64,000 bases of DNA from a virus: the IMG/VR virus record IMGVR_UViG_3300010158_000060, positions 1-64,000 of that record; one strand, written 5' to 3'. The notes below the pieces were generated by a model that saw only the letters and a list, made by a program, of their open reading frames with translations, was not told where the DNA came from and made no database searches. Every line of letters starts with the position of its first letter. Within the stretch, counting starts at the first letter, position 1. This document shows, piece by piece, positions 1,081 through 59,509 of the stretch. The translations under genes and the position numbers were made by a program.

Positions 1081-1108
1081 ACCCCTGCACTTGTAGGGGT
1101 TTTGTTTT
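1081..1108 (+). terminator. Rho-independent terminator
   Basis: Stem ACCCCTGC / GTAGGGGT (one G-U pair), loop ACTT, followed by TTTGTTTT. Confidence 0.8.
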
Positions 1109-1150
1109 ATAGCTATATTTGCTAATATAACTAATTTTTACTATATTATT

Positions 1151-21900: not shown

Positions 21901-22120
21901 TGGTGAATATTATGAACTAAAAGAATCTAGTATAGCACAACCATTTGGTAAACAAATTGATGGTAAATTAAGTGAGATAATGAAAAGTTTTGCTGATGCT
22001 AATGAAATACTTTCTGATGATTTTAAAAAATATCACGGTTCTAATAATGAAAAAACTGTTAAATCTTTTCAAGATAAATTTGGTAGAGTTCCTAAAGATT
22101 CTGGATATAAAATATTATAA
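18998..22120 (+). CDS. Putative cargo/ejection protein (1040 aa)
   Basis: Long helical ORF starting MATYIQGVTDYIP..QPFQPD, located between cargo genes. No catalytic motif seen. Confidence 0.6.
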   Translation: MATYIQGVTDYIPDFQPFQPDYNFYNNVLQTKQNQYDKNYKQLNNLYGQLYYQDVTRDSSTKMKDDYLKNIDYELKRVSGLDLSLEQNVEQAKQIFRPVYENKNLMKDMALTKNYKDEKSRALALASSKNKEDRGAYWDVGIKDMDYRLEEFKNAAEADVLSFGNIMYTPNVNATQQYMDLAKKYNLSVDITQPDKSGMYMVRQKNGDLIIPTLQKMFYADYINDPALQKKYATEAYVRRKDESKARASKYGNNEILAEKEFLKEQFLFLKDYTKEKTKQAEEAVSASTNQKNNVEQDISNGEVNPFQPAYLQKIAQAIEVDEIVYKHNKDLSQELDPSGNTYTGENTITSVEGLNLDNLEQARYDVDRLHASYLAERDIMSAADAYSRNDMIYKQEISPLGLETVRHQHAMERDQENNRRADLRASAKIQAASDDALNKWKLDNGFAEIDPETGKVVNVKAGAQEEESGDGGEGGQTEDRSVNSIKYNRKVLNEHVDKLSSEYIDTWVNTIKNGIDGKEIYANDLAYLFGTDRAGGQKIWDKIKNEYDNGADGRQKLVRDLTLNAKIFDYKKRMDAWALKHNAGGTGLKYNKTSSISSYKLDQMKTFYSMHLQIKKENENRIASSLSTKLEARGIEDKALRYTIIDQYLKKYVTGKAWEDDEFNDMLENTLDSYEKRTGKQVKTPGFFSRTGQLIANIPNMIGASVSPNPTNMYKAGKAIKNFSNGDLLGDMNETYEDIVYSPDHKLGLLSYLPSIKSTAGGKTSLGATPTSVNVNLGRKDDNLIYFNQFLNDVRKINFNQADKNSYRVSLKGNQYDPDAEIDINLNNKLKNMLFDLSTMSKNKSQKGNPTIFKLIQSQIGAENSDLGAMKVKNIPNEVIEKYFDKKADAQIISDLQTNGVTYIAPASSWKNSLFQSNKVTPTEAVLNTGKKIQYIDPVYGHKLILDRDNVTGNYRYTTTIRAVDDNGEYYELKESSIAQPFGKQIDGKLSEIMKSFADANEILSDDFKKYHGSNNEKTVKSFQDKFGRVPKDSGYKIL

Positions 22121-22122
22121 TA

Positions 22123-25100: not shown

Positions 25101-28100
25101 ATATGAAGAGTATGCTTATTTATTTCAAATAGCAGCTCAACTATCTGAACAAAGAGCAGCAGGTGATCCTGCAACCTTGCAACAAAAATATGAAGATAGG
25201 TTATCTGAATTAAGACAACAAAAAACTACTGAATTAAATAAAGCAAATGAAGATTTTGAACAAGCATTTAAAGATGAAACAGGAGTTGAGTTACAAGATG
25301 CATATGCTCAAAATCAAGAAGCTTATGATAAAAATAAACAATTAGAAGAGGATCAAAAACTTGCTTCTGAAAAAATTAATAAGCTTCAAACTTTATTAGA
25401 TGTAATTGGTAATGATCCTGTAGATTCAAATAAAATTACAGAACTTGCTGATGAATTATTATCAGCAGAAGAACTACAATTAATAGAAGAAGAAACAGAT
25501 AGTACTCTTATTAATGCTATTGCATCACGTCAATTTAAAAGACCTAAGGCTGGTTCTGATCCTGATATTATTGATAGAACAATTGATATTATATATGCTT
25601 TAACAGAAAAATCTCCTACACTACTTGCTCAAAAAATTGAAGAACAAAATAATATTCTTAAACAAAATCCTTTAGAGATAATTAGTGTTAGTGATACTAA
25701 ATCTTTCAAAGTTAATGAAGAAAGAATTGGTGCTATAAACACTAGATATGATAAGTTTGAAGCTGATTTAGAAACAGAGTTTAAAGAAAAAGGCATAGAC
25801 AGAGTAACTCAAGAAGATTTTACTGCACAGATGGGTTATGATGCTTATCCTCAAGATTTGCAAAATGAAGTTAATGAAAAATTTGATGCTTATTTAGAGT
25901 CTATTGATATAGATCCGGCAAGTTTGCAAGATACTGATGTAATTAAATATTCTAATTTAAGACAGAACTGGTTAGAAAGTTCTGATGGTGCATCTTTATT
26001 AAATGAATACAATAAGAAAGTTAGAGAAGAAGGTGAAGCTAGAGCTAAAGCTTTGAAAGAACCTCCTGTTTTAACTTCTAGAATTGCTAAGAATTTAAAG
26101 ATAGAAGCAACAATTCCTATAAGTAATTTAAATGCAATTATAGACAAACTAGAGAATGCAGTTAAAACTAAAATCTACACTACTTATAAAAATGGTCAGG
26201 TAGATAGAGAAATAAAACTTACAGATCAAGATCTTAAAGAAATAGGAGAAGACATTGATAAACTTAAAACATTCCTACAGTACAGACAAGGCTCATTACA
26301 ACCAGTAAGTTTAGCAGAAAAAGTATTAGAAAGTTTTAAGAAAGGTGTTGCAGCTAGACAAGATGAATTAGTTGATGTATTTGATGAAGATGGTAACAAG
26401 ATAGGTAGAAAATTTGCTGATGATCCTGATAATAAACTTACTACCAGAGTAACTACAATTTCTGATAACATGGCTTCTAAAGTACCAGGTACAAAAAAAC
26501 CAGGTTATGATGATGAGTATGTAAATGAGATTGTAAAAGCATTCTTTTCTGAATATAATCTTGCAGTTAAAAAAGGTGATGTTGATGCATTTGATAAAGC
26601 ATGGAAACTATTTACTGAACTTGCAAGAACAAACTATAAACAGTTTAATAATGAGCAAAAGAAAGCTAGAATTAGAGCTGCATTAGAAAAAGATACAACA
26701 GAAGAAAACTTTAAAAAATTAATTGAAAAAGAATCATTTTCAAATAATGCTCAAGCTGGTACTAATCTAGATGCTGCTACAAAAATGTTCTTTACTATTG
26801 ATGCTGCTACAGGTACCTGGGCTTCATTTAAATATAGTGACAGTGTAGAAATTGACGGTAAAGAAACTAAAATTTCAGACATCATGAGTGAATCTGCTTT
26901 TAATCAAATGTTTGGTGAAAGAGGAATTGTTACAAGATTTAGAGCTGATTTAGATACAAAAGGTTATTTACCACTTACTAATAATGTTAAACTATTTGAC
27001 AAAAGTTTATTAGAAAATGGTGTTTCTGGTGAAACAGATTTAGTATTGATTAATACTAAAGGTGAGATCATGATTGTAGACTTTAAAACATCTGTATCTT
27101 GGAATAGTTTTAATAATCCAACCAGCTGGAAGAATGTTGCATATAGAGCTCAGCTTTCTATTTATAGAAACTTGTATCATAATATGACAGGTGTTACTCC
27201 AAAGATTGCATTATTCCCAATGAGAATTAGATTGGATAAGAATGCTTCTTCATATGTTACTGAAGTAACTGTTGGTGGTGAAAAATATAAAGATAAACCA
27301 TTAGAACCATTAGTTCCAAACACAGCTAAGTTATTTAATACACTTGAACTTGAATACTTACCAGATGTAGAAGCTGAAGGTATAACTTTGTCTACACCAG
27401 CAATTGCTGCAGAGATAGAAACTTCGGGTGAAGAAGGTGTAAAAGTTGAACCAAGTTTACAAATAAATGCTTCTGATACATCTAAAGTATTACTTAAAGA
27501 TAATGTAGGTAAGCAAGTGATTTACAATGGTAAGATTGGTACTTTAATTTTACAAGATGATGGAACCTATGGTGTAGAAGTTGATTTAGGTTTTGAACAA
27601 TCTATGTCTGAAGCTTTAATAGGAAATGAAGAAACAGGACTAAAGGCTGATTTGGCTCTTGCTGAAGGGGAATTTGGAGATCCTAAATTAGCTGCTGAAA
27701 TCAAGAAAAAAATTGAGGACTTACAAAAGACTCAAAAAGGTAAAGAAATATATCCTCTTCTTTCAAAAAATAAAAATATTACTGATGGTAGTGTTGAATT
27801 AATTAATGCAGGTTTAGCTTTAATAACACCAATTGAAAACATTGGTCAAATTTCTATTATCAAAGGGACTGTTATAGATGCTAAGTTTGAAAATAGTAAT
27901 GAAAACATTGCAATTGTAAATGGAGTAAGATATACTGTAGGAAGAAATGCTTTAGGTGAGATAACTCAACTTGTTTATTTTAAGAATGATGCAAAAAGAG
28001 ATGAACTTGATCAATCAATTTCTGCTTTAACAAAAAAGGTAAATTCTGAAAGACAAAGAATGCAAGCTGCTAAGACAGAGATTGAAAGTCTTAATGATGA

Positions 28101-29472
28101 AATTGCAAATTTGGAAAAACAAAAAAGAAATGATGGTTCTGACTTTGTTGGAATAAGTAATAAAATTAAAAAACTTAAACAAACAATCAATACACTTTCT
28201 CAAGCATCATTTATTAGAAGAATAGGTAAAGCTCAAGCTAGAATAAAAGAACTACAGGAAGAAAGAAATAAATTATCTACTGATGATAAAGTATTTGTAT
28301 TAGGTGGTAACAGCAATGATGTAATATTTGCATTAAACAGATTACCTAACCAGTTCCAAAAAAACAGAGCAAGTAAAACCGCAGCTGATACACAAAAAGA
28401 ATTAAAGCAAATAGCTTCTTTCTCCGAGGCTTCTCCTAAAGTAGAAAAAGAACTAGATACTATCTTAGAGAAAAACTTCCCTGAAGAGTTAAATGTATTG
28501 TTTGCAAAAGGTATATCAGAATTTAAAGGAAAGGGTAAAGAGCTTGCTAAAATTAAAAATTGGATTGATGAAACAATAGTGAACCTGTTAGCATATCAAA
28601 ATATGTTAATGGTGGAAAATGATGCTTTAGGATTTGATGCTGTTGACAGACAAATTAATGCATTAAATGAATTAACCAATCAATTAAATTTAATTAACTT
28701 AACTGCTAAAAACAGAATTGCTAAAGAACAACCATATGAACAAGAACTCAATGAAATCTTCGGACCAGAGTCAGAAGTACAATCCGGGACTAGTGTACCT
28801 GAGATTCAAAGCCCTACCAGAGGACAAACAAAGACTGTTTCTGGAGAAACAAGCGGAGGACAAGAGAAAGAAATTTCAATCTCTGAACTCAAAAAAATAG
28901 TCAATTCTTCCTCAGAAGAACTTGATAATTTATTACCAGAAGAATCCGGTATTAATGTAGCAACTGAAGCTTTTGCTGATATTACTGACTTAGAAGCATT
29001 ACATCTTAAAAAGATAGAGTTAATTAAAAATAGAAAAAATAATAAATTAACTCTTGATAAAATTGAGATTGCTTTTGAAAACAGATCTCTTGAATTAAAA
29101 GAAAAAGTGAACATTGCTTCATTGAAAAAGGGTGATATATTACAAGATATTGGTAACTTTACAAATCAAGATTCTCCTGTACAAATAGTAAAAGTTAACA
29201 AAAATTCTGTTATATTAAAGTACGGAGATGTTACTCAAGAAGTAACTGAAGATGAGCTTGAAAATAATTTTGTTAAACCTACTAATGAAACTGTAATGCC
29301 CGAAACTGTAAAACCTTCTCAAGAAACTGTTGATGCCTCAGAACAAACTAAAACTGATGCTTCTGAAAATCTTACTAATAAAGATTTTTTAGAGAGAAAT
29401 GAAAAAGAAGCAGATGATTCATCCAAAGATGACTTATTCAAAAACTTAGAAGATAATTCAAAAACTTGTTAA
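22123..29472 (+). CDS. Giant cargo protein (2449 aa) with a glycine-zipper membrane-like segment, coiled coils and a PD-(D/E)xK nuclease domain
   Basis: GAAVGAVGGGGAGAGPGALIGG at about 22740-22805. GVSGETDLVL...IVDFKT...YRAQLSIY at about 27020-27165. Confidence 0.7.
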   Translation: MANTKVVPSMADLDINNLSNTSKIIDTRQAMSGVTPNTPAKNTSSSRDRMKAISNSITASDAAFQDKNEYGNVYAYDNSPSGPSFKARYKAYGQETYNKIGFDPNIDNEAVYNQQTNTFDDMKRWAVNAALPMVGLGFMSPLNSYASGFGGDLDASRQEAKDYEYYNAIGYSSKGGVGGFTTNLLNSVSYSAGILLEGAAEGMMIGAAVGAVGGGGAGAGPGALIGGAIKGLEAFAKIPSALFQSVKNIGKISTAVNELKNINAAKNFFTSAVKGTAKFLNPLENTYDAYKSLKGVDDITRLAKVSKTAGAFWHDIMGVNLALSEGRLEGGFAQKSVYDKLYNDHYAKFGQAPSSEQQVEMMKQAKKAGFKNTIWNTGLVFNSNKIAFPSITRASFLKGVPRFNFGKVVGEVGKEFQLVFNPADDIAKSYYSKEAISLKNSLKALKDPKKLGAGALNYFKKNLVEGAQEIGQEVLASATEKQFVDGYYSKASSGYMYSIGALLDGLGKQMNEQGAETFASGFLMGSLLEGPSKLFKFGTKNFSRLYTDKALYEKNLKERGAQADNIVNALNNMHKNAKYFFDPRMSNYSTQMLVAKAVDNPDNVTKKDAKDLEFQAFQSSVLTALRTGTFDMFVKNLGDYKTLSPEELEEAWSLEQGQGEKALQNIDKAINSAKVTEARFNYARDKFKDFVDLNNYKEGSPEHQVAQIYNQAYLESINSFVFLQNSFDDGLKRLEKLYGSANKIKSLSSSAFSNFSILSDANKLSAQINYLMEEIDSAASTNDPRLSEEINRKRTLLNALNTFHTTQENITGANLMEVLNNIKENGDVSDSRVTDYLDSFQDVLEAIAINNKEDGSFDDVDQVKAKLRAELDNNGGIDDLFGSLFDIHLLRHENTAMAKYVNMLADPQGFYDHLNKNFTWMKDLYNNRKEYYKEIVNKEISDVEKNEVLNTLASKGIFVDLDEFAEWCNNPNYLPSYFIDTTKEMIINQDSVLYEEYAYLFQIAAQLSEQRAAGDPATLQQKYEDRLSELRQQKTTELNKANEDFEQAFKDETGVELQDAYAQNQEAYDKNKQLEEDQKLASEKINKLQTLLDVIGNDPVDSNKITELADELLSAEELQLIEEETDSTLINAIASRQFKRPKAGSDPDIIDRTIDIIYALTEKSPTLLAQKIEEQNNILKQNPLEIISVSDTKSFKVNEERIGAINTRYDKFEADLETEFKEKGIDRVTQEDFTAQMGYDAYPQDLQNEVNEKFDAYLESIDIDPASLQDTDVIKYSNLRQNWLESSDGASLLNEYNKKVREEGEARAKALKEPPVLTSRIAKNLKIEATIPISNLNAIIDKLENAVKTKIYTTYKNGQVDREIKLTDQDLKEIGEDIDKLKTFLQYRQGSLQPVSLAEKVLESFKKGVAARQDELVDVFDEDGNKIGRKFADDPDNKLTTRVTTISDNMASKVPGTKKPGYDDEYVNEIVKAFFSEYNLAVKKGDVDAFDKAWKLFTELARTNYKQFNNEQKKARIRAALEKDTTEENFKKLIEKESFSNNAQAGTNLDAATKMFFTIDAATGTWASFKYSDSVEIDGKETKISDIMSESAFNQMFGERGIVTRFRADLDTKGYLPLTNNVKLFDKSLLENGVSGETDLVLINTKGEIMIVDFKTSVSWNSFNNPTSWKNVAYRAQLSIYRNLYHNMTGVTPKIALFPMRIRLDKNASSYVTEVTVGGEKYKDKPLEPLVPNTAKLFNTLELEYLPDVEAEGITLSTPAIAAEIETSGEEGVKVEPSLQINASDTSKVLLKDNVGKQVIYNGKIGTLILQDDGTYGVEVDLGFEQSMSEALIGNEETGLKADLALAEGEFGDPKLAAEIKKKIEDLQKTQKGKEIYPLLSKNKNITDGSVELINAGLALITPIENIGQISIIKGTVIDAKFENSNENIAIVNGVRYTVGRNALGEITQLVYFKNDAKRDELDQSISALTKKVNSERQRMQAAKTEIESLNDEIANLEKQKRNDGSDFVGISNKIKKLKQTINTLSQASFIRRIGKAQARIKELQEERNKLSTDDKVFVLGGNSNDVIFALNRLPNQFQKNRASKTAADTQKELKQIASFSEASPKVEKELDTILEKNFPEELNVLFAKGISEFKGKGKELAKIKNWIDETIVNLLAYQNMLMVENDALGFDAVDRQINALNELTNQLNLINLTAKNRIAKEQPYEQELNEIFGPESEVQSGTSVPEIQSPTRGQTKTVSGETSGGQEKEISISELKKIVNSSSEELDNLLPEESGINVATEAFADITDLEALHLKKIELIKNRKNNKLTLDKIEIAFENRSLELKEKVNIASLKKGDILQDIGNFTNQDSPVQIVKVNKNSVILKYGDVTQEVTEDELENNFVKPTNETVMPETVKPSQETVDASEQTKTDASENLTNKDFLERNEKEADDSSKDDLFKNLEDNSKTC

Positions 29473-29473
29473 T

Positions 29474-32400
29474 ATGATTTGTTCACTTAATGAAACTCAG
29501 ATTTCAGACTTATATAAAATAACTTACAAAACACTTTCTGATCTTAAACCATCAGAAAGTTTTGATTTTGAGGCATTTACAAAAGATATTTACACTAGGA
29601 TTGAAAAAGCTGCTGGTGAAGAAAAGGCTTTACAGTATGCACAAATCATACCTTATGTGATCAATGTTTGTCAAAGTAATAGATCAGATATAAGCAATAA
29701 GCTATTAGATTCAGATTTTGATTTTAACAAGTTAATCAAGATAAAAAAAAGTTTTGAGAATTTAGAAAATGTAAAAAAGCTTGTTACAAAATCTGTAAGA
29801 AGAAAATCTAAGAAAGAAGTAAAAGATGAATTAGAACATCAAAACTTTCAATTAGATAACTTAGAAATTACTGATCCTGAGAATTCAGAATTAGAAAAAG
29901 CAAGAGACAAAGCAAAAATTGAGTTTCCTAATGTCACAACATTTCAGTTTGCTGACCAAAAAGATCCTTCTAAAAAAGAAACACAGGAAGAAGAGGATGT
30001 AACATCAGAAGACAAAAAAGTTTTTGAAACAGTAATTAAAAAAATTGTAAAGAGTGTCAAAGAAAAACCTGCTGAGCAAGACAATCCAATGATTGATGAT
30101 ACAGAAGTGTTTTTAAAAATGATGCCTTCAGAAAGTCTTGAGGATAAATATAAACTATCTAAAGATAAATCTGAAACTGCAAAATCATATAGAGGAGTTC
30201 TTGCAGTTATTACTGATGCTGATGGTAATTATATATATTTTGATAAGAATGGTAACATAACTGATGAAGAAAATGGTATTGTTGTTTATCAGTTTATAAG
30301 AAAACCTTATTTGTTAGAAGATACATTTAACAAAAATAAACCTGCTTTCTACACAATTTATCATAAAGCTGGTAAGATGTATAAGAACACCTTAGTTGCT
30401 GCTAGTAAGATTGCTGAAAGATTAGGTTTAGCATCTGGTACCGTTCTTAAAGAACAAACAAAAGCAATGAATGGTGTATATAACATGCGTAAGGATGTTA
30501 TAGATAACAATGCTTCATATATTACTCAAATCACTGGTGGTAGTTTTGGTATAGTTAGTAAAGCAAAAGCTGATCAAATCAATGCAGAGTTAAATAAAAC
30601 AATTAAACTTACTAAAGAAGATATTAAAGAAGTTAAACTTGTATCTACTAAAGGTAGAGATAGAAATAAAGGATTTTATCAATTTTATATCAAGAAGAAT
30701 ACAGAAGCTCTTGGTGAAATTGAAATGCCAGTGAATGTTCAAAGAGGTAACTTTAATCAAGCACTTGCTGATAAAGTGGCTGATGTTATTACAAGTAAAG
30801 CTACTAATAAAGGACTTCCTCTTTCAGATGATAAAAGAATTGAATACTTTAAAGTATTTTTAAATAATCAAAGAGTAAGTGCAAAGGGGGTTAAAAATGA
30901 AAATAACATTTTTTTAGAAAAAGCTACTCGTGGACCTCTTACTTTAACTATCAATAATGAGAAGTTTGAAGGAGATGAAATTTTTACTACTGCTGTAAGA
31001 GATAAAATTGCTCAACACTTACCTCAAGCAATTAAGTTTGGTGATAAAGGTTTCATTGGAGCAAATGTAAATCTTACTGCTAAATACATGGGTGTTGATA
31101 AGACTTATACTGATTATGAAATATCAGGTAATAAGATTACACCGGTTGAAAAAAACTATATTGAAACTGTAGTTTTACCATTTGCATACTTGCAATATGA
31201 AGCTGAGTCTGCAAAGAGTGTTGCAGGATTCAATCCTTATTTAGCATATGCTGTTCCTGATGAATTTACAGAAGATGATTCTGCATTCTTTCCAGTTGCA
31301 GTAGATACACAAACTCAGCGTCCAGTTAAGAAAACAACTCAAGTTCAAAAAAATACTACTGCTGAAACTGTAGTTAAAGAAAAAGCTAAAGTTGTTCAAA
31401 AGAAAAGAGCTACTAAAAAAGTTGAGACCATAGAAGAAATTGAAGAGATAATTGATCCGGATCTTATTAGTCTTAATGTAGCAAGTAACCCTAGTGTAAA
31501 TATTACACCAGATGAGCTTACTGGTTTTAATAGAAGCAAAGATTTAGATATTTTAGATCAAGTATTTACTACTGAAGCTGACAAAGCAGAAGCAGAAGAT
31601 TGGTGGGCTAACAACCCTTTGAGTAAATATATAAGTCTTGAAAGAATTACTAAAGTTGTTAACTCAAATGCATTTGCAACATTTACAGGAACAGGTATTA
31701 CACTTTATGAAGGTGATGGTGGTACTGCTGTGGATTTATACCATGAAGCATGGCACGGATTCTCTCAATTATTCTTAACAAAAGCTGAAAAGATTAGATT
31801 ATATGAAGAATTAAAGGGCCAACCAAAATGGGCCAATAAATCTTACTTTGAAATAGAAGAAGATATTGCTGAGGATTTTAGAGATTATGCTAGAAGCAAA
31901 GGTAAAAAAGAAGCTCCTAAAGGATTTTTGGAAACAGTATTCAGAAGAATGTACCAGTTCCTACAGAACCTCTTTGGTAAAGTAAGTAACCAAGAATTAG
32001 CTACAAGACCAAGAGATATTGCATCTGTAAAAGAATTGTTTGATAAGTTATATTATGCATCTGAAAGACCGGAGTTATTGCAAAACATGCAACCTTCTAC
32101 AGATAACATGATGTTTACTCAATTAAACAGAGCTAAAGCTATTACTTCAGTAAAAGATGTAGCTACTAAATATGAACCTTTTGATTCTGCTGAATCACTA
32201 AAAATTGTAAACTATTTAGATAGCATGATCCCACAAGTTTTTGATGCTTACAATAAAAAGTTTGGTGTAACATCAGGACCAGTGAAAGTTTTACAAACTA
32301 ATACCAATAGAGAATTCCTTTATCAGTTATTAGAAAAGAAACTATCTGAAAAGTTAGATGCTGTAAGAGCAAATCTTGCAACTAGGGCTGCTGAAGGTGA

Positions 32401-35400
32401 GGATATTGAACCTGAAGACTTAGCACAATTGCCATTCTTAGCTAAACTACTAGATAATTTTGGAGATATTAAGCAAACTATTGACAGTAAAGACCAAAAA
32501 GGTGTTGTAGCTTTCCATTTACAAAATTCTAAATTTAAAATATTAGCAAATAAATTTATTGAGTTAGAAGAAGATCCAACTGATATTGATAACTCTAGAA
32601 TTGTTAGGCTTGATGGTGGTAATATTTTCTCTTCAAGAGAAGCTGCCAGTCAAGAAACTAAAACTATTCTATCTAGTATATACAAAATAGATAGAAATAA
32701 ATTTACTATTACCACCAATGATGATGGTACAAAAAAATTAAATGTTGAGTATGAAATAGATCCTCAAACAGGTCTTCCTGTGTTATTAGATGAGAGAGAA
32801 ATGTGGAGCAAGGTTGCAAAAGTTACAGCTGGTTCTTTTGATAAGGAGGAAATGTATAAAAGACTTGCAGATGGTGTAATTGATAACCCTGAATTTTTAC
32901 AGTTGTTATCTTACTTACCAGACAGAAGTAAGAATGCTGATGGAACAGAAAAAGATTATGCTGACAAAAGTGAATTTACTATTGAAACTAAATTCTGGCA
33001 GGATCTTAAAAAACCAAGATTGTCATATGTACAGTTAAACTTAAATATCCAAAAAGGTCAAAAAGAAACTCTTGCAGAAGCAAGGCTTCAAAGAACAGAC
33101 TTTGATAGAAGCAAAGTTTTAAGAGACTGGCAGATCAATTTTAAGACTATATCTAAATCTAAATACATTTCAGAAAATAAAGTACTTGACTTAAATGGAT
33201 TAGTTAAAGATTTCAAGAATAACTTGAATCCTAAAAATGTTGTGTCATTCTTAAATGCTTTAGGGCTCATAATGGATACTAGTAATCCAACAATTGCTAG
33301 TGTGTTAGCGGACCCAAATTTCATTAATAAGTTTGGAATCAAGCATATTTATGACACTCTTGAGCATATTAATAATGTAAATGATCCTGAGAAAGCTAAA
33401 TTTCTTAAAGATCCAATTGAGTATTTAAAATCTTCATTACCTAGTTCATTAGATAAAGGTAAAGCTTTTGACTCTTCTTCAAGAATCAAGGAGCTTGCTA
33501 ATATCCAAGTAAGATTTTCTGATAAGTATTCTAACTTTAGTGCAATTAGTCCTGAAGGAAATAGAGTATGGGAGCATTTCTTGGATAATACTTTTACAAG
33601 AATAATGACTTCTTTAAACCATGCTGACTCATGGCAACAATTAACAAATCCTGAAGCAGATCCAAATGGTTTGTTCAGACATATGAGATACTTAGCATAT
33701 GACAACAATACTTACACTGAACATTCAGTACTTTTAAAATCATTGTTTAACAGTCTATCTGATGTAACTAATCCAGGTGGTAAAAAAGATAACAAACTTG
33801 TTATTCAAAATGTAGCTGGAACACAATTGATTGATAAAAATACTGATAAATCAACAGGTATCTCTACAGCATCAATGGATGCTACAAGTAAGTATTTACA
33901 AGAGATACATACTATGTTGATGAATGGTGTAGAAGAGTTCATGAGACATGCTTCTAAACAAATGTCACAAGGCATTGTAATGAAAAATGGTATCAATACT
34001 TATGGTAATAAAGCTGCTAAGAATTTATATGTTGACATAGAGAAGTTTTTACCTACAACTAATTCTGGTGAAGATTATTCATTTGATATTTTATCTGGAT
34101 ACTTAGCTGGTGAAGTAAATAGAATTTTTAGATTTGGTTCTGATGTAGATAAATATTCTGAATTTACAGGTTATACAAGACCCGTAAAAAGAAAAACAGG
34201 TGAGATTGTTATGTCCGGTCAAGCACTTGCAGCATTTGAAGATGTATTATCAAAAGATACTCAGAAAAAAATCTATGCTATAGTAGATAAAGCAATTGCA
34301 ACTAAAAATACTGACTTTGATTTTTCAGATATTTATGAAGAAGACACTACTCTTGCATTAGAAATTAGAAAAGATGTAGCTAAGTATTTTAATGAATTAA
34401 CAAAAGACTTAACAGATAGACTTAATAAAACTAAGTTTATTGACCCAACATTAAGATCCCGTATAGAAAATAAAGGTGTTGAACTTACTGTAGATGAGTC
34501 TGACACAACATTAATGAAAGCATATGCTTATAATTCATGGATACATAAATTTGAGACAAGTATTCTTGGTTATGGAGATTTAGCATTATACAATCATGCT
34601 AAAGAAGAATTCCATAAGCGTAATGCTGGTTTTGGTGGAGGTGGTTTAGGGTTTGCTTCTGATTTAAAATCAAGAAGTTTTATTAATCAAATGACTAAGT
34701 TATTTGAGCCTAATAAAAAACCATTTGACGGTACTCTAACTACAGGTATCATTAGAGAAAGAGTTATAGACAAATCTGTTTACTATGATGAATACTATGA
34801 TGCTCTTGTAAAAGAATACACAAAAAGATTTGGTTATAAAGCTAAGGCAGAAGACTTAGCAAAAACAGCTTTAAAAGAATATACAAAAATGAAGATTGGT
34901 GATGGTCAAGGACACATCAGTTTTGAAACATATAGAATTTTAAAAGAACTTGAAGGTAACTGGTTACCAGAACAAGAAGAGTTATATAAAAAACTAGCTA
35001 AAGGAGAAGAAGTATCAGTAGAAGATATAATTCATTACTTCCCACCTTATAAGTTACAATATTGTGGTGCTATAGAAACAACAGGTTTACCACTTGTATC
35101 TTTCCATAAATTCTCTCTTGCTCCAATTATACCAGGTGTTGCTAAAAAAGGTACACCTCTTTATGATTTGAATGAGAAAATGATAGCTGAAAACATGGAC
35201 TATGTGCTTTTTGAATCAGGTTCAAAAGTTGGTCACCTTGGTAATGGAGATGATATAATTGCTAAAGATGGTAGTATTATTAAAGATGTCCCATTTACTA
35301 AAAATGTAATTTTCACAGAGTTCCTAAAGAACCAAACAGAAGTTAACTCTGAGTTTAAAGGTAAATCTATATTCTCTACTCAGATGAGAAAGTTAATTTT

Positions 35401-38400
35401 AGATAACTTATATGAAAATGGTGCGATCAATTCTCCAAATGAAGAAGATGTGGTATCACCATTAGTAAAAAGATATCTTGACAATGTAGCTGATTATACT
35501 AAGTTAGTTAAATTAGAGTTATTAGAAGAAATTGGTTTTGATGAAACACCTGACGGTGGTTATAAACCAAGAGACAAAGAAAGCATTGGTAAATTATTAT
35601 CTCTTGTTAGAAATAACTTAGAGAATGAGGAGTCTTATAGTGATGAGATGATCAACTTTATTGATGCATTAGATAGTGGTGAGTTATTACATGACTTGTC
35701 ATTACACCCAGAAGCATTAAAAATTGAGAAACTTTTACTATCTCTGATCAATAAAAGAGTTATCAAACAAAAAGTAAAAGGTGAACCGCTTGTACAAGTG
35801 TCTTCTGCTTTTTATGAGAATAACCTTACAGAGTCTCCTAACTTTAGAAATGCTACTGATGCAGATAAGAAAAAATGGATAGGTAGTAACTTACTTCCTA
35901 CTTATCACAAGATGGCGGATGGTAAAACCGCAGCAATGAAGGTTATGATTGCATTACAGGGGGACTATGCTAACTTGTTGAATCTTGAGTATAATGGAGA
36001 AACCATTGGTACTATAGAAAGATTAAACCAAGCTATTAAAGATGATGTATGGTTAGATGCAAATAATGGTGCTAACAGAAAAGCAATAACTCTTGTAGGG
36101 GTTAGGATTCCGGTTCAGGGTCTAAACTCTATGGAGTTCATGGAAGTATATGAATTCTTACCTCCACAAGCAGGTAATATTATTATTCCTCCAGCTGAGA
36201 TAGTTGCTAAGTCCGGGGGTGACTTTGATATTGATAAACTTACAATCTTCATGACTAACATAGACACGGATGGTAAGCTTAAAGAAAGAACCTATAAAAA
36301 CACAGAGGAGTTGAAAGCTTCTCTACAGAACATCAAAGAGAACAAAGAAGAATCAATAACAAAAGTTTTTAAACAACAAAAAGCTGGTGTTGAAAATGAT
36401 TTGATGAATGACATCAAAGAAATACTTGAGCTTCCGCAAAACTTTGTATCACTTATTACACCAAATGGTACTTTCTTATTAAAAGATATAGCTGAAGACT
36501 TAGCTAGAGATGTAATGGAATATGATCCATTCAAAAATTACATGACTGATACAACAACAGAACCTGAAGAAGGTAAGAAAATTATCAGTGCAACAAGAGT
36601 ATTAGAGCCTCTTTATAACTTATATAAACATGGATCTAATATTGTTAGTAAGAAAACATTAGGATTAGGTGCTGTAGAGAATACAATGAATGTATTATTA
36701 AACTCTATTGGGGCCTTAATGCCGGAGACATATACTAATTACAAAGGTGAATCAAGAAGTACTAATATTGGTTTAAGACATAATGTAAGAATAGTTAATG
36801 GTAAAGAAAGAATTTCTTTGTCTAACTTATATGATGTAGATAACACAAATAAAATAGCAGATATATTCTCCCAAGCAATGAATGGCTGGGTGGATGTTGA
36901 AAAAGATGCATGGATTTTCTTTATCCAGGGTAACTATGAAGTTGCTCCTATATTGTTATATTTAGTAAAAGCTGGCGTACCAGTAAAAGAAGCTATTTAT
37001 TTTGTGTCTCAACCTTTAGTAAGAGAATATGTAGATGAGCAACGTCTTGCTAAATCTACTTTTGCTGAAGTATTAGGTAAAGCTCCTGAGCAAAAGTCAT
37101 TTGTTAAATATCAAGCCGCTACAAATATTGTAGATAAATATTTCAATCCTAAAGTTTTACCAGCTAAAGGTAAATCTATTACTAGATTTGAAGTAGGACG
37201 TGAGATGTTTAATAACTATATGAAAGACAGAAAAAGCAAAAACTTTACTGAAAAAGAAATGTTAGGTTTGATTAGAGAATCTAAAAATACACTCAGTGCT
37301 AAATCTTCTGACTTATCTTTAACTATGTTCTTACATTACTTAGATATTGAAGACCAGATTAAAGGTATCACACAGATTAAAATGAATGCTAATCCAGATA
37401 CAAACACTAAGTCTGTATTATCTGACATTGAAACATCTGAAGGAAGATTAGAGAACTTAGAAGGTAATGCTGAGTTACAACCAATTATTTCTGCTTTAAT
37501 GGGAGATTCTATTATTAGTTCTTTCTTTAATAACAAACTAGCATTGTCATTAGCTGCTCCATTATTTAAGTTAAGATACAACCCAGCAATCCGTACTTTT
37601 ATAAAAAGTAAAGATGATTCTAATGAGTTAATGGAAAACATTAAAACAACATTTGGAGAAGATGGTAGAGATAATTATCTAAACACTTTTAGAAATGATC
37701 TAGTTACATATATTTTCCAAAATGCTATAGTTAAAACAGATCTTAAAAAAGGTTACATGTCTTATGAGGCAAGAGAAATTCCTGTTAAAGAAATGCTTTC
37801 TGATAACTTTGGAGCTTTTGTAAAAACAAATAAAGATGGTACTAAAACTTTATTCTACAATCTTAAAAATTTACAAGAAGAATACAACTCTAAAGAATGG
37901 AGTAATAAAACAGAAGAACCAAACTATTATTCACAGTTAGGTTTCCATCCGCTTCCTGCAAATACATTTACAATTGCAAAAGGTAATGACGCAAAAGCTT
38001 ATGCAAGATTTGTAATGGAAAGAGAGTATTTAAGATCTGTATATCCAATTGCTGAAACAGAAATGGAAAAAACAGAGTATGAAGAGTTTTTAGCAAACAG
38101 AGCACTTGATAATACTTTCAATGTAAATCATATGTTCAGGGATCCTAAAAATGCTTTTGCTATAAGAGTGTATGATGTTATCACATCCAATCCAAAACTT
38201 GCTAATAGATTTGATATACTATCTAAATTACAACTTAACAATAACACAAGTGACACTATGTTTAATCTTGAGTTAATTGACAGAGATATTGATAATATCA
38301 AAGCTAACATCTATACTAAAAACTTAACTGATTTAGCTGACCCAGTTGTATTAAAAACATTAGCAAAAGATTTAAGTTTAAGTGATCAAGAGATTACATA

Positions 38401-39871
38401 CATATCAGATTTATTCTCTAGGTTACCTTTGTTTGCATACATGCAATCTGGTATCAATAAAACTAGTGCTAATTTAGTTCCTTATGTAAGTACAACACCA
38501 TTCTTAAATATCATGGATGGTGCTGTTGAAGATTTTACTAAACTTTTGGCTGATCCAGGTAAAGCATTTAGACTATTAGAAGATTTTTATAATAAGTTTA
38601 ATGCTCAAAATAGTTATTATAATAAAGAGAAAAACAGATTCAAAAACTATTTTACAGATATCAACTTTGACAAAATAGAATCTAGAGTAGAATCTACTCA
38701 ACCATCTACTAGTGTTGAAGCTAATGTTAATAATTACTATACTTTTAACTCAGCAGGTGTTTTAAAATATAAAAATAAAGAGCTTGATGATTTGTTTTTA
38801 AAATTAAGGGATACCTATAAAATACCTAGTATTCCTAAAACAAAAGAAGAAACAAGATTATTTAGATTAAAAAATGCATTACTGCTTACAAAAAATGCAG
38901 ATACAAATGATTATATAAAAATACCTGATTTATCAGATATATTTACTAATACAGAAGCTCTTAAATTGTATAAACAATATTTAAACAACATTAATAATTC
39001 TAGAGATTTATTTATTGAAAGATTTAAAAATGATTCTTTATTTAATCAAGAAATAGAATTTAGACCTGGTGAAATTAAAAAAGGGTATGAGTTTATACCT
39101 AAAACAACAAAATCATTAATTGATCAACCAAGTATTTTGTTTTTAGAATTGTTTAAAAATGCTGGTTTAAAACCTGGTACAGATGCTTACAAAGCTAAAT
39201 TATTAGATTTAAAGCAATTTATAGACTCTAAAACAACAGTTTTATTAAATAATGCTATTAAACTTGAGTTAGGTATTACTACTACTCAACCAGCTACTGA
39301 AACTGTAGAAGAACAAACTAATGATCTTATTACAACATCAGATCCAAACATATTTATTTTTGATGATTCTAAAGATGACAGTGCTGCTTTCTACAAAAAA
39401 TTAACCAGTACTAACTCTACAGTAGGTTTTGTTTATAATGCAACCAAGTTTGAAATAGATAATAATAAAGATCTTCCTGGACAAGGTTATTTAAGATTAG
39501 TATCCAAAGATACCGCCTTACCTTTTGTTACAAGTTTGACTAATAATTTTGATAACTTTAGTAACTTAGCAGCTGATAAATATCAAAGTGTGAAAAACTA
39601 TTTTGATAGAAAAATTCAGGAGCTTAAAAATGCTAAAGACTTAGGTAACAAAATTGCACTTCCTAAAGCAGGAATAGGTGATGCTAAGAAAATGCCTAAA
39701 GAATTATTTGTATATTTAAGTAAGAGATTGTTTGAAGAACTAGGGTATTTAAATCCAGGTTCTACAATGTATAAAGACATAACAGAAATATTAAGTAATA
39801 AACAAGGTATCTCAGATGATGAAATTCTTGCATCACTAGGTTTTGAATCTGATCCTTTTAACTGTGTATAA
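29474..39871 (+). CDS. Virion-packaged single-subunit (double-psi-barrel) RNA polymerase, crAss-like, with N-terminal zincin domain (3465 aa)
   Basis: VRIPVQGLNSM followed by the catalytic GGDFDIDKL (DFDID at 36221-36235), as in phi14:2 gp66. Upstream DGQG and PYK motifs, and HEAWH at 31742-31756. Confidence 0.9.
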   Translation: MICSLNETQISDLYKITYKTLSDLKPSESFDFEAFTKDIYTRIEKAAGEEKALQYAQIIPYVINVCQSNRSDISNKLLDSDFDFNKLIKIKKSFENLENVKKLVTKSVRRKSKKEVKDELEHQNFQLDNLEITDPENSELEKARDKAKIEFPNVTTFQFADQKDPSKKETQEEEDVTSEDKKVFETVIKKIVKSVKEKPAEQDNPMIDDTEVFLKMMPSESLEDKYKLSKDKSETAKSYRGVLAVITDADGNYIYFDKNGNITDEENGIVVYQFIRKPYLLEDTFNKNKPAFYTIYHKAGKMYKNTLVAASKIAERLGLASGTVLKEQTKAMNGVYNMRKDVIDNNASYITQITGGSFGIVSKAKADQINAELNKTIKLTKEDIKEVKLVSTKGRDRNKGFYQFYIKKNTEALGEIEMPVNVQRGNFNQALADKVADVITSKATNKGLPLSDDKRIEYFKVFLNNQRVSAKGVKNENNIFLEKATRGPLTLTINNEKFEGDEIFTTAVRDKIAQHLPQAIKFGDKGFIGANVNLTAKYMGVDKTYTDYEISGNKITPVEKNYIETVVLPFAYLQYEAESAKSVAGFNPYLAYAVPDEFTEDDSAFFPVAVDTQTQRPVKKTTQVQKNTTAETVVKEKAKVVQKKRATKKVETIEEIEEIIDPDLISLNVASNPSVNITPDELTGFNRSKDLDILDQVFTTEADKAEAEDWWANNPLSKYISLERITKVVNSNAFATFTGTGITLYEGDGGTAVDLYHEAWHGFSQLFLTKAEKIRLYEELKGQPKWANKSYFEIEEDIAEDFRDYARSKGKKEAPKGFLETVFRRMYQFLQNLFGKVSNQELATRPRDIASVKELFDKLYYASERPELLQNMQPSTDNMMFTQLNRAKAITSVKDVATKYEPFDSAESLKIVNYLDSMIPQVFDAYNKKFGVTSGPVKVLQTNTNREFLYQLLEKKLSEKLDAVRANLATRAAEGEDIEPEDLAQLPFLAKLLDNFGDIKQTIDSKDQKGVVAFHLQNSKFKILANKFIELEEDPTDIDNSRIVRLDGGNIFSSREAASQETKTILSSIYKIDRNKFTITTNDDGTKKLNVEYEIDPQTGLPVLLDEREMWSKVAKVTAGSFDKEEMYKRLADGVIDNPEFLQLLSYLPDRSKNADGTEKDYADKSEFTIETKFWQDLKKPRLSYVQLNLNIQKGQKETLAEARLQRTDFDRSKVLRDWQINFKTISKSKYISENKVLDLNGLVKDFKNNLNPKNVVSFLNALGLIMDTSNPTIASVLADPNFINKFGIKHIYDTLEHINNVNDPEKAKFLKDPIEYLKSSLPSSLDKGKAFDSSSRIKELANIQVRFSDKYSNFSAISPEGNRVWEHFLDNTFTRIMTSLNHADSWQQLTNPEADPNGLFRHMRYLAYDNNTYTEHSVLLKSLFNSLSDVTNPGGKKDNKLVIQNVAGTQLIDKNTDKSTGISTASMDATSKYLQEIHTMLMNGVEEFMRHASKQMSQGIVMKNGINTYGNKAAKNLYVDIEKFLPTTNSGEDYSFDILSGYLAGEVNRIFRFGSDVDKYSEFTGYTRPVKRKTGEIVMSGQALAAFEDVLSKDTQKKIYAIVDKAIATKNTDFDFSDIYEEDTTLALEIRKDVAKYFNELTKDLTDRLNKTKFIDPTLRSRIENKGVELTVDESDTTLMKAYAYNSWIHKFETSILGYGDLALYNHAKEEFHKRNAGFGGGGLGFASDLKSRSFINQMTKLFEPNKKPFDGTLTTGIIRERVIDKSVYYDEYYDALVKEYTKRFGYKAKAEDLAKTALKEYTKMKIGDGQGHISFETYRILKELEGNWLPEQEELYKKLAKGEEVSVEDIIHYFPPYKLQYCGAIETTGLPLVSFHKFSLAPIIPGVAKKGTPLYDLNEKMIAENMDYVLFESGSKVGHLGNGDDIIAKDGSIIKDVPFTKNVIFTEFLKNQTEVNSEFKGKSIFSTQMRKLILDNLYENGAINSPNEEDVVSPLVKRYLDNVADYTKLVKLELLEEIGFDETPDGGYKPRDKESIGKLLSLVRNNLENEESYSDEMINFIDALDSGELLHDLSLHPEALKIEKLLLSLINKRVIKQKVKGEPLVQVSSAFYENNLTESPNFRNATDADKKKWIGSNLLPTYHKMADGKTAAMKVMIALQGDYANLLNLEYNGETIGTIERLNQAIKDDVWLDANNGANRKAITLVGVRIPVQGLNSMEFMEVYEFLPPQAGNIIIPPAEIVAKSGGDFDIDKLTIFMTNIDTDGKLKERTYKNTEELKASLQNIKENKEESITKVFKQQKAGVENDLMNDIKEILELPQNFVSLITPNGTFLLKDIAEDLARDVMEYDPFKNYMTDTTTEPEEGKKIISATRVLEPLYNLYKHGSNIVSKKTLGLGAVENTMNVLLNSIGALMPETYTNYKGESRSTNIGLRHNVRIVNGKERISLSNLYDVDNTNKIADIFSQAMNGWVDVEKDAWIFFIQGNYEVAPILLYLVKAGVPVKEAIYFVSQPLVREYVDEQRLAKSTFAEVLGKAPEQKSFVKYQAATNIVDKYFNPKVLPAKGKSITRFEVGREMFNNYMKDRKSKNFTEKEMLGLIRESKNTLSAKSSDLSLTMFLHYLDIEDQIKGITQIKMNANPDTNTKSVLSDIETSEGRLENLEGNAELQPIISALMGDSIISSFFNNKLALSLAAPLFKLRYNPAIRTFIKSKDDSNELMENIKTTFGEDGRDNYLNTFRNDLVTYIFQNAIVKTDLKKGYMSYEAREIPVKEMLSDNFGAFVKTNKDGTKTLFYNLKNLQEEYNSKEWSNKTEEPNYYSQLGFHPLPANTFTIAKGNDAKAYARFVMEREYLRSVYPIAETEMEKTEYEEFLANRALDNTFNVNHMFRDPKNAFAIRVYDVITSNPKLANRFDILSKLQLNNNTSDTMFNLELIDRDIDNIKANIYTKNLTDLADPVVLKTLAKDLSLSDQEITYISDLFSRLPLFAYMQSGINKTSANLVPYVSTTPFLNIMDGAVEDFTKLLADPGKAFRLLEDFYNKFNAQNSYYNKEKNRFKNYFTDINFDKIESRVESTQPSTSVEANVNNYYTFNSAGVLKYKNKELDDLFLKLRDTYKIPSIPKTKEETRLFRLKNALLLTKNADTNDYIKIPDLSDIFTNTEALKLYKQYLNNINNSRDLFIERFKNDSLFNQEIEFRPGEIKKGYEFIPKTTKSLIDQPSILFLELFKNAGLKPGTDAYKAKLLDLKQFIDSKTTVLLNNAIKLELGITTTQPATETVEEQTNDLITTSDPNIFIFDDSKDDSAAFYKKLTSTNSTVGFVYNATKFEIDNNKDLPGQGYLRLVSKDTALPFVTSLTNNFDNFSNLAADKYQSVKNYFDRKIQELKNAKDLGNKIALPKAGIGDAKKMPKELFVYLSKRLFEELGYLNPGSTMYKDITEILSNKQGISDDEILASLGFESDPFNCV

Positions 39872-39873
39872 AA

Positions 39874-42800
39874 ATGGTTTGTGAAGTAAAAGTAAATTCT
39901 ATCAAGTATTTAGAAAAACAAAAAGCAACTAATGATGTAAGAAGAATAATTGATACAGCAAAGTTTAGTGAGCTCAATGAGAGTCTTACTAAACTTGCTG
40001 TAGACAAGTATGGCTTAGAAACAAATGGAGAATTACTTTTTCAGGATACTGAGATAAAACTAAAAGATGATAGAACTTCTACATATAGAAGAGATAGTAT
40101 TGTTACTATAAACAGAGCGGAGCCCAATGAGCCTTTGTTTGAAAAACTTCAAGAACTCAAAGTTAGATATGATCAAAGACAGGCAATAGCTGATAATGCT
40201 ATTGTACCAAAAGAAGATTATAATAATAATGTACAAGAATTATTTAATTCTAATCCTGAATTAGCTAAAATAGGTACACCACAACAATATACTGAGTATA
40301 TAAAAACTATATTTCCTGATAGTAAAGTAAAAGATATTGTTTATCATGGTAGTAAAGAAAAATTTGATAAGTTTGATAAAACTAAATTAGGTCAATTTAC
40401 TGGAGCTGAATCAGCAAAACAAGGTTTCTTTTTTGCAAAAAACTTTGACACATCTCTTCAATATGTTATTAAAATTGCTGTTGATATAGCAAATGAACAA
40501 TTAAAATTACTATCTCAAAGAGACATCAATGTTGAAGATACACTTTATTTAAAAGATTTACAAGACCAGTATAATGCAGTATCAAATGAAAGTACAAAAA
40601 AGTTAGTAGATTTTTTAACAAGTGATAAGTTTCCTCCTTTTACATATTTTAATGTAGATAATATAGATGACTTAAAAAATCAAATAATAAAAATTGTTTC
40701 TGAATTTGATGGAAATGTTAATGAATATATATCTGAGTTTGATTCTATTATAAAAGATGTTATGAATTATGTGAGAGGAATGGTAATCAATATAACTAAT
40801 CCAATTACATATGATTTTAATCAAACAGAAAAATATCAAACAAGAGAAATATCTTTTAATACATTGTTAAAAAATAAAACTACTGAAGATGGGGCAATTT
40901 TTGAAAATGTTTATGATCCTTTATTAGATACCATTTATACAGTATTTGAACCAGAACAAATACATATACTAGGAAGCAATGATGACATAGAAGGGTTTAA
41001 ACAGTTTGTTAAAGGTATTTCTAAACAAGCTATGTTTATTAGAACAGATAATAACATTCCAATTATACCAATTGATTTAAATACAATCAATCAACAAGCA
41101 TCAAAAGCTGTTGCTGAAGCTATAGCATCTAAATTAGCAGCTAAACTTGGAATAAATTATCATAACTTATCTCCAGAGCAAGCTACAGAAATGCTTAAAA
41201 ACAATCCTGTACCATATAGAGGTGAGCCTGCATTCTTTTATAATGGAGCTATATTCATTGTTGGAGATAATGTAAGACCGGGTATTCTACTACATGAATT
41301 TTCTCACCCATTACTACAAGGTATAAGAAAAACAAATCCTCAACTATTTAATAATTTATACAATCAATTATCTAAAACAGATGAAGGTTTAAGTATCATG
41401 GCATATGTGAAAAAAGCATATCCTGAACTAGATGTTAATTCTGATTTGTTTAAGGAAGAAGTATTAGCATTTGCTATGCAACTAAAATCCATGAATAAAC
41501 TTGAAAATAAAGTTGAGACAGAAGGGTTTCAATCTTTTATGACCAAGTTATTAGCTTCATTAAAACAGTTATTACGTGAAATATTTGGAAATGGAGTAAA
41601 CTTGAAAAACCTTAATGAATCTACATCTCTTGATGAACTAGCTGAGATGCTGCTTGATGATACCATGTTTGACTTTGAAGAAGTTAATCTTACTGAGGAT
41701 GATTTGGTAATGTATGTTAGAGATATTTTTACAGAAGCAGATAAACTCACATCTAGTGCAAGTGCTAATGTTTTACAAGAAATAGTAAATGAATTTTATG
41801 CACGTAACTTACAGATTGTTAATCAAATTAAAGACTTCAAATCTGATAAAGTAACAAGAGAAATGTTAGAAAAAGCTTTAAAAAAGCAAAATACAACAAA
41901 CTTATTACCTGGAGTAGATGAAATTCTTAAAGGATATCAAAACATTAATAATCTAAATGTTATATTAAATGAAGATCTAGAAGATCTAGAAAAGACAAAA
42001 CAAATGGCTGCGGCTTTAATTAACAGTGTTGATAGGATTAATACATCAAGTAACAACATAATTAAAGAGCTTAACAATATCAATAAACAACCTAGTTTAA
42101 TCAACAATAGAAACACAATTGCTTTACTAGGTCTTTATAAAAATACTTCTGAATCTTGGTTAAATGTAATTGATCAAATCAATGAACTTTTAGATGAAAC
42201 TGAAATAGATAAAAACAGTGAGTTCTATTCACTTATTACCAGTATTGTTAATAATGCTACTATAATTAATTCTAAGATTGCTCAAATTTATAAAAAAGGA
42301 GGTATTCAATTTTTTGTGGAAATCACAGGTTACATGAATGAATTTGTAAATAAAGAGTTAAAATCTAATTTAGGCATTGCTTTAAAAAAGGCATTTTCTG
42401 AATCTGAGTTAGAAACAGCTGTAGATGAATTATATAGAAAAGTTGTTGAACAAAAATTTACTCCAGAAGATGCAAAAGCTCTTCATGATAAAGGTGTTCC
42501 TGCAAATATTCTAGATGAGTTCATAAAAAAATATAACAACTATATTGTAAATGAAGATAAAATTAAAGACGCTCTCACAGGACATGCTAAAGATGTAAGC
42601 TGGTTTAACAGGTGGTTAGAATCTTATAGTTCTAGTAATGATGTAATAGTGGGTCCTTTATCTATGTTTATTCAAAACCAAAAAACTGAAGTAGAAACTA
42701 AAGTTTGGAGAATGTCTCAAGATTTTAGAGCTCAGTTAGAGATATTACTTCCTCAAGTAAATTTCAGTAAAATGAATCCAACTCAAATAAGAGACATGGT

Positions 42801-59026: not shown

Positions 59027-59030
59027 AGAA

Positions 59031-59038
59031 CAAATATA
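59031..59038 (-). promoter_or_regulatory. Bacteroidota-type -7 promoter element
   Basis: TATATTTG on the - strand immediately upstream of the LAGLIDADG start. Confidence 0.5.
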
Positions 59039-59068
59039 CAAATAATATACTACATTCCTAACATATTT

Positions 59069-59509
59069 TCATTTAGAACGGAAGAATCTACCTAAGATGT
59101 TTCCATTAAGAAACTGTTCTTTTTCAAGTACTTCCATACAAAATTGATGTTTAGTTTCTTGATAAGTAAGCTCCATACTTGAATAACATATTTTAAGTAT
59201 TTCTCTTTTTATTGTCACACCTTGCTTATGTGCTTGCTTTAGTACTGCATTTGAACTGTAGTAATTAAGAAAATCCGGTCTAATAACCAGTTTATATTTC
59301 TTTAACCTTTTATCAGTAGTCACAGCTAAAGCTTTTTTACCAAGTGGTCTTTTTATATTAGCAAAGAAATTTTTCTTGCCTATGTAAGAAACAGACTTAC
59401 CATCTATTATAGCTGTCATAAGATAAATAAATCCTATTCCTCCTTCTGGGATATCTAGTTCACTAAATACTTTACCTTTATAAGTCCAAAAATCTATTGG
59501 TTGATTCAT
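59069..59509 (-). CDS. GIY-YIG (Seg-like) nuclease-family protein
   Basis: GFIYLMT...SYIGKK, YYSS, REIL, a conserved E in LTYQE, and LNGNI. Confidence 0.7.
   Translation of the reverse strand: MNQPIDFWTYKGKVFSELDIPEGGIGFIYLMTAIIDGKSVSYIGKKNFFANIKRPLGKKALAVTTDKRLKKYKLVIRPDFLNYYSSNAVLKQAHKQGVTIKREILKICYSSMELTYQETKHQFCMEVLEKEQFLNGNILGRFFRSK

Follow-up and report, generated by a model that had tools for sequence, protein, structure and literature searches.

Facing terminal cysteines on three giant cargo proteins of a crAss-like phage suggest a redox-cleavable ejection chain

The DNA analysed here spans positions 1 to 64,000 (hereafter the window) of the IMG/VR virus record IMGVR_UViG_3300010158_000060, a viral contig, linear and 72,333 bases long, whose completeness is estimated at 60%. 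The + strand of the window bears a crassvirus virion block in which three giant genes, designated A, B and C, lie in tandem; their products are probably injected by this crAss-like phage, with an RNA polymerase, the B protein, in the middle. We found that these proteins are nearly devoid of cysteine (Cys) except at the ends that face the next protein of the series. This pattern is real and not a product of chance and, as judged from related loci, the rule of facing Cys is deeply conserved. We favor, with moderate confidence, reading it as the signature of a redox-cleavable head-to-tail chain, A-S-S-B-S-S-C, in which putative disulfides would join each protein to the next.

Terminal cysteines in the window and its relatives

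The first-pass annotation of this DNA, made from the letters alone, had described terminal Cys at both the A–B and the B–C junction, outer ends free of Cys and only a few internal residues. A recount of the sequence returned exactly these residues: A starts with MANTK and ends with DNSKTC, B starts with MICSL and ends with DPFNCV, and C starts with MVCEV and ends with GATRIR, so that four of the seven Cys among the 8,154 residues of A, B and C (0.09%) sit at the two facing junctions, the outer ends (MANTK and GATRIR) have none, and the "few" internal residues are three, namely A968, B66 and B1864. Background Cys content is 0.91%, as scored in 90 distinct open reading frames (ORFs) that do not belong to the chain, taken from the window and related loci. 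The features concerned are the following (lengths in amino acids, aa).

22123..29472, + strand: gene A, 2449 aa, first link; Cys at 968 and 2449 (ORF, Cys positions)
29467..29469, + strand: TGT codon of A Cys2449, the final residue, followed by a TAA stop (sequence)
29474..39871, + strand: gene B, 3465 aa, virion RNA polymerase homologue, middle link; Cys at 3, 66, 1864 and 3464
29480..29482, + strand: TGT codon of B Cys3 (sequence)
36221..36235, + strand: DFDID catalytic motif, B residues 2250-2254 (sequence, alignment A1)
39863..39865, + strand: TGT codon of B Cys3464, the penultimate residue (sequence)
39874..46596, + strand: gene C, 2240 aa, last link; single Cys at residue 3 (ORF, Cys positions)
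39880..39882, + strand: TGT codon of C Cys3 (sequence)

When the seven Cys were placed at random in A, B and C, all four inner ends, defined as the last 10 or first 8 residues, were matched in 0 of 2,000,000 trials, and the analytic chance that all four carry Cys is about 9e-10. Cys codons are nearly all TGT, as expected at 30% G+C, and codon choice is thus uninformative.

Homology identifies B as a crassvirus virion RNA polymerase of the phi14:2 gp66 type. Residues 1400-2500 of B matched 53 Crassvirales records by tblastn, among them phi14:2 g066, annotated as "Catalytic RNA polymerase subunit" (E 2e-14), and blastp of g066 against B gave an E of 4.8e-19. The 26-sequence alignment A1 shows no variation at D2250, D2252, I2253 or D2254, which fits a DFDxD motif with I or V in the fourth position; in phi14:2 gp66, every aspartate of DFDID is reported to be needed for RNA synthesis (bioRxiv 10.1101/2020.03.07.982082). 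The genomic context is also that of a crassvirus, with ring and muzzle Pfam families upstream on the same strand. Sequence searches of the PDB with B and with profile A1 yielded no match, neither A nor B has a family in PHROGs or Pfam, and megablast of the region against phage records returned nothing. That B is packaged and ejected is suggested by the detection of its homologues in virions by mass spectrometry.

Conservation of the terminal residues was evident among B homologues, of which we took the best 120 of 713 with E <= 0.001, reaching down to about 40% identity. Cys occurs within the last 5 residues in all 120 and within the first 5 in 116, which begin M-x-C; the remaining four are short gene calls of 2,652-3,102 aa. 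Exactly two Cys, both terminal, are present in 99 of the 120, and the whole set holds 259 Cys in 411,682 residues. Both C3 and C3464 of B are invariant columns in alignment A1, and the conserved N-terminal M-x-C supports the start codon assigned to B.

We then scored the junctions themselves. A profile scan of viral contigs provided 73 loci with 31-95% identity, which together with the window make 74 sources (29 clusters at 70% identity of B, 8 at 50%). Locus ORFs were labelled by BLAST against A, B and C; choosing B by motif was dropped, as it missed 5 loci and mislabelled 2. Every junction with both ends present was scored for Cys in the last 10 residues of the upstream protein and in the first 8 of the downstream one, including those formed by a small extra link described below. 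Both Cys were present as follows.

A–B junction: 60/61
B–C junction: 63/63
B–small extra link junction: 5/5
small link–C junction: 6/6

The pair was thus found in 134 of 135 junctions. The single A–B miss, in locus L073, is a frameshift in a run of adenines (10127-10139), and a start reading MVNC can be found directly after the stop codon of gene A. Outer ends behave differently, with Cys at the N-end of A in 1/55 and at the C-end of C in 0/66, while representatives of the 29 clusters have Cys at every inner end available. Chain proteins that are complete and reach 1,000 aa or more contain 257 Cys in 469,487 residues, 232 terminal and only 25 internal, which sets the internal frequency at 5e-5 versus the background of 0.91%, that is, an approximately 180-fold purge. 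Among the 90 background ORFs, Cys appears in the first 8 residues of 21, 19 of which belong to one family (MPKKIxEC...), and in the last 10 residues of 2. Each of the four inner ends has its own conserved sequence context across the 29 clusters. A lack of conservation or of co-variation across junctions had been named as grounds for abandoning the original proposal; the terminal Cys proved both conserved and co-varying, with pairs at 134/135 junctions, additional pairs in split genes and their loss in A–B fusions.

Split, fused and rearranged chains

Natural rearrangements of the giant genes follow the same rule. In L079, B is divided into a 602-aa part, matched to B residues 1-423 with an hhalign probability of 98.8%, and a 2440-aa part that aligns to B 707-3001; the new ends read NSCK and MRLC, and the number of terminal Cys per protein (hereafter valence) becomes 1-2-2-1 along the chain. 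In L034 it is C that is split, into a protein of 396 aa with Cys at residue 3 and at the penultimate position and one of 2232 aa with Cys3. Between these halves lies a 202-aa ORF (21937-22545, + strand; Cys at 4, 15, 27 and 195) that could be a further link or an unrelated insert. Three other loci, L071, L073 and L076, interpose between B and C an extra link of 242-261 aa with only two Cys, at residue 3 and at the final residue; the 252-aa link of L076 has no similarity to C (hhalign probability 1.6%). Junctions with Cys on one side only were limited to the L073 frameshift and to one doubtful small ORF in L034.

Fusions have the opposite effect. Annotated phage records provided four Suoliviridae with A and B fused: cr1_1 (4551 aa), cr118_1 (4946 aa), cr4_1 (4491 aa) and cr113_1 (4328 aa). 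The former A–B joint, estimated from the HExxH region to lie at about residues 960-1,250, is free of Cys in all four, the first Cys occurring at 4026, 2041, 2180 and 2018, respectively, whereas the C-end keeps its Cys, 3-4 residues inward, and the following protein carries one at residue 3-5. These four fusions probably trace to a single event. In the intestivirid cr271_1, A ends with a penultimate Cys and is followed by a B–C fusion of 4620 aa that starts with MSC and lacks a C-terminal Cys; its 14 internal Cys preclude judging the B–C joint. Such A–B and B–C "polyproteins", the latter in cr271_1, have the same domains in the same order within one polypeptide, but a peptide bond stands where we propose a disulfide, and the A–B joint has no Cys nearby. 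A search with C among proteins of up to 5,000 aa returned no B–C fusion.

The giant genes of cr4_1 and cr113_1 (loci L088 and L089) contain 18-73 in-frame stops under translation table 11, and a stop codon is therefore read as an amino acid in their late genes. The frame breaks seen in giant genes of the related contigs L073, L061, L051 and L017 include a homopolymer run, 1-nucleotide (nt) shifts and a deletion, and gene calls there are misleading.

Known crassviruses were surveyed in 11 of the 53 matched Crassvirales records, picked for taxonomic spread and not at random. In phi14:2, the only Cys of gp67 (1797 aa) is its final residue, gp66 (2180 aa) carries two, at 3 and 2179, and gp65 (1421 aa) carries just one, at residue 3. 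All three are annotated from virion tandem mass spectrometry. They share with the window homology, the DFDID motif and the terminal-Cys pattern, although they are shorter than A, B and C, and the first 94 residues of gp65 are 37% identical to the first 95 of C. PhiCrAssBcn14, DAC15 and cr128_1 also follow the rule, with a few internal Cys, and so does IAS virus, provided that its annotated gp055/gp056 break, next to ambiguous bases, reflects a sequencing error by which B was divided. Gene A of these four gut crassviruses runs convergently to B and C from the other strand, and its product still ends with Cys. The initial idea that the proteins are chained in gene order does not, then, hold in general, as the C-terminal Cys of A persists where A has left the series.

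Beyond these orthologues, 13 other giant proteins returned by the search with C (P0121-P0133; 4,064-4,908 aa) resemble C only at the level of domains. Cys is present at one or both termini in 12 of them, and 9 have no internal Cys; the rule therefore travels with different domain sets.

Gene context of the chain

Further features of the window, upstream of the chain and within it, are these.

1729-2400, + strand: CrAss_Ring_2, tail ring protein 2 (Pfam)
2400-3452, + strand: CrAss_Ring_1, ring protein 1, 11 Cys (Pfam)
3454-9009, + strand: crAss_MUZ, muzzle protein, 23 Cys (Pfam)
18998..22120, + strand: 1040-aa protein with 0 Cys, immediately 5' of A and outside the chain (ORF and Cys count)
31742..31756, + strand: HEAWH (HExxH) toward the N-terminus of B, with invariant H757, E758 and H761 (alignment A1)
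41293-41307, + strand: HEFSH motif (HExxH type) in C, invariant
45622-45741, + strand: LysM domain, C residues 1917-1956 (Pfam, above cut-off)

The muzzle gene is followed by four large ORFs of 1458, 892, 934 and 1040 aa without family matches. Zero Cys are encoded in the 1458-, 892- and 1040-aa proteins upstream of A, and the Cys-poor block as a whole spans 9009-46596, with the 1040-aa protein inside it; this upstream neighbor of A is also devoid of Cys in nearly all relatives. The 934-aa protein (16133-18937, + strand) is the sole Cys-bearing member of the block between 9009 and 22120, with six Cys, and its two CxxC pairs (636/639 and 657/660) resemble a zinc ribbon; it has neither a Pfam nor a PHROG match. 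ORFs of the replication module of the window mostly contain 0.3-3.5% Cys.

About 95 aa at the N-terminus of C form a conserved domain. Residues 155-363 of C match ART-PolyVal (PF18760) with 19.7 bits, below the gathering cut-off of 31.2, and PF18760 is a precomputed domain in some longer relatives. The invariant HExxH motifs of B (HEAWH) and C (HEFSH) are both zincin-peptidase-like. Many of the B homologues P0004-P0071 have inserted Pfam domains that are missing from the B of the window, namely PF13532, PF13671 and PF06414, where one source labels the protein "predicted kinase", as well as PF25176 and PF12694; lengths run from 3,243 to 4,046 aa, and the variable stretch apparently lies near B residues 3082-3271.

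On the - strand, a 379-aa protein (47835-48974) begins with MPKRISEC, and its sole Pfam match is a weak one to DUF2680; orthologues in 18 related loci start with MPKKIxEC or MAIRTxxC and keep Cys8. A LAGLIDADG ORF (58178-59041, -) and a GIY-YIG SegE-like homing-endonuclease ORF (59069-59509, -) stand side by side and adjoin the primase gene (59506-60480).

A putative disulfide chain and its alternatives

The chain that we propose would operate as follows. A, B and C would be cargo packed in the crassvirus particle, purged of internal Cys and retaining a single Cys wherever an end faces its neighbor in the chain, for a valence of 1-2-1. In the oxidised virion released from the cell, bonds would link the C-terminal Cys of A to Cys3 of B and, at the next junction, B's penultimate Cys to Cys3 of C; the product would be a linear thread of 8,154 residues (about 925 kDa) that passes through the tail as a single polymer of fixed composition and order. 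The host cytoplasm would then reduce the bonds and separate the thread into three proteins, the disulfides thus forming after release from one cell and being reduced after entry into the next. A linear chain with capped ends is suggested because the two outermost proteins have a valence of 1 and all those between them a valence of 2, and the gain of a new pair at each break and the absence of any pair at fused joints are likewise what such a chain requires. From these features we infer that bonds form in crassviruses between the partner ends named and act in ejection and release. The role originally envisaged for them in packaging order, stoichiometry and release could follow from such bonds.

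A precedent for a bond of this kind is found in a cyanopodophage. The genome of Anabaena phage A-4L encodes gp27 (1717 aa), with a single Cys at 1715, and gp26 (1114 aa), with a single Cys at 5. According to the cryo-electron microscopy of cyanopodophage A4, these residues form a Cys1715-Cys5 disulfide in the packaged pre-ejectosome, where that bond fixes the C-terminal helix of gp27, docked into gp26 (PMC12002296, PNAS 2025). As in A, B and C, the genes are consecutive, encode ejection proteins and place single Cys at facing termini. However, A and B have three extra internal Cys, and the A4 pair makes one link between two proteins rather than a chain, involves no RNA polymerase and forms an ordered pentameric ring. 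The A4 report describes the bond as stabilising a single interface and not as a general rule (PMC12002296). No similarity between the A4 proteins and A, B or C was detectable (best blastp E 0.18), and the two designs are analogous and probably convergent.

Depletion of Cys in itself has been described before. In the N4-like phage DEV, Cys was reported at 0.00075% in gp71 homologues against 0.865% proteome-wide, and the authors cite an earlier suggestion that ties Cys suppression to passage through the periplasm (PMC11445570). T7 gp15 and gp16 have 0 Cys. The N4-like proteins (DEV gp71-73, N4 gp50-52) and the T7 core proteins thus share with A, B and C the near absence of internal Cys, but these ejected proteins lack terminal Cys and facing pairs, whereas the purge in A, B and C spares exactly the facing ends. 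T7 gp14 (L092) has a single Cys, at residue 2.

Of the explanations that dispense with a neighbor-to-neighbor chain, a by-product of the nucleotide sequence at the junctions, such as translational coupling, or plain chance was rejected and is extremely unlikely. The junctions of the window are indeed tight, 1 and 2 nt wide, and B and C both begin ATG-RTT-TGT. In relatives, however, the Cys position varies from residue 3 to 7 at N-ends and from the last to the tenth-last residue at C-ends, gaps range from -11 to +154 nt and may include whole genes, and an A that lies on the opposite strand, away from B, keeps its Cys; no nucleotide-level junction signal can therefore be at work, and random placement never reproduced the arrangement (0/2,000,000). 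It is also quite improbable that the terminal Cys act singly, for example as modification sites, redox sensors or signals in packaging or processing. Proteolysis of the cargo is conceivable given the invariant HExxH in B and C, and nothing else speaks specifically for this option, which leaves unexplained the facing pairs, the bare outer ends (1/55 and 0/66) and the roughly 180-fold purge of internal Cys.

Joint action of facing Cys leaves the chemistry and the partners to be considered. Ends joined by a bridging metal ion, or by other thiol chemistry, would generate the same pairing, split and fusion statistics, which reveal that the Cys act together but not how; two thiolates alone nevertheless make a weak site, the end motifs of the 29 clusters contain no conserved His, Cys or Asp beside either Cys, and the sole solved case with this signature is a disulfide (PMC12002296), all of which renders this alternative unlikely. 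Disulfides could, alternatively, form between partners other than neighbors, be they homotypic (A-A, C-C, or polymers and rings of B) or anchors to the portal, the tail or other cargo. The 1-2-1 valence alone fits such bonds equally well, tail and portal-vertex proteins of PhiCrAss001 are reported to use disulfides (PMC10172136), and the ring and muzzle proteins of the window are rich in Cys (11 and 23). Yet every natural split provides one Cys per new end, fusion loses both Cys together and never one alone, the four ends differ in their conserved context, and the A4 bond runs from a C-end to the N-end of the next protein (PMC12002296). We consider homotypic or anchoring bonds rather unlikely, and the disulfide chain between neighbors remains the reading that we prefer.

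Several observations nonetheless weigh against that chain. The bond in crassviruses is deduced from sequence and from the analogy with A4, and sequence alone cannot tell A-B pairing from A-C pairing or from self-pairing of ends. A968, B66 and B1864 could compete for bonding. Virion assembly takes place in a reducing cytoplasm. Neither an Erv1/ALR oxidase nor a thioredoxin was found in the 72,333-base record, a negative that carries no weight given that the record is only ~60% complete and that the Erv1 control gave no signal. The purge is weaker in gut relatives, IAS virus having 10 Cys in its B-like and 7 in its C-like protein, and cr271_1 having 15 in gp48. Finally, four breaks in relatives (L009, L017, L051 and L061) have no Cys on either side. 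Those at about 26110 in L017, about 21170-21400 in L051 and about 16543 in L061 interrupt otherwise continuous coding sequence by frameshift or deletion; L009 has a deletion of ~70 residues relative to L010 and may be a real split without a pair.

Published work regards as unsettled how about a megadalton of cargo protein, with the RNA polymerase that initiates infection among it, exits the capsid in a set order by way of a narrow tail (PMC10172136, PMC13434306). The cargo of PhiCrAss001 virions is put at about 5.5 MDa; among it are three RNA-polymerase-associated proteins, which must partly unfold to traverse constrictions under 50 A; the authors consider that the order of extrusion is probably set by packing and mutual interactions, and inter-subunit disulfides are reported to stabilise the tail and the portal vertex (PMC10172136). 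In the available text of that paper and of bioRxiv 10.1101/2020.03.07.982082, which deals with phi14:2, the string "cystein" has no match and "disul" refers to tail and portal-vertex proteins only. Our full-text literature search, which reached few subscription journals and main texts only, found no description of terminal Cys in crassvirus cargo proteins. Cys-suppressed ejection proteins and one solved inter-protein disulfide, that of A4, were thus known already, and what appears to be new is a multi-link, valence-coded chain around the virion RNA polymerase that would extend across the order.

If true, a covalent chain that can be reduced would explain an equal stoichiometry of A, B and C, an ordered threading through the tail and a release inside the cell. 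A wider generalisation is possible but more doubtful. Cys valence of the form 1-2-...-2-1 may have arisen more than once in evolution and serve podophage ejection trains in general as a grammar that encodes both membership and order; it would specify a polymer of about 8,000 residues that is cut by reductant, with host redox state gating the release of the RNA polymerase and the start of crassvirus transcription. From sequence only, the signature also offers a means to tell which proteins of an uncultured phage belong to an ejection train and in which order they come, and it does so across splits, fusions and extra links.

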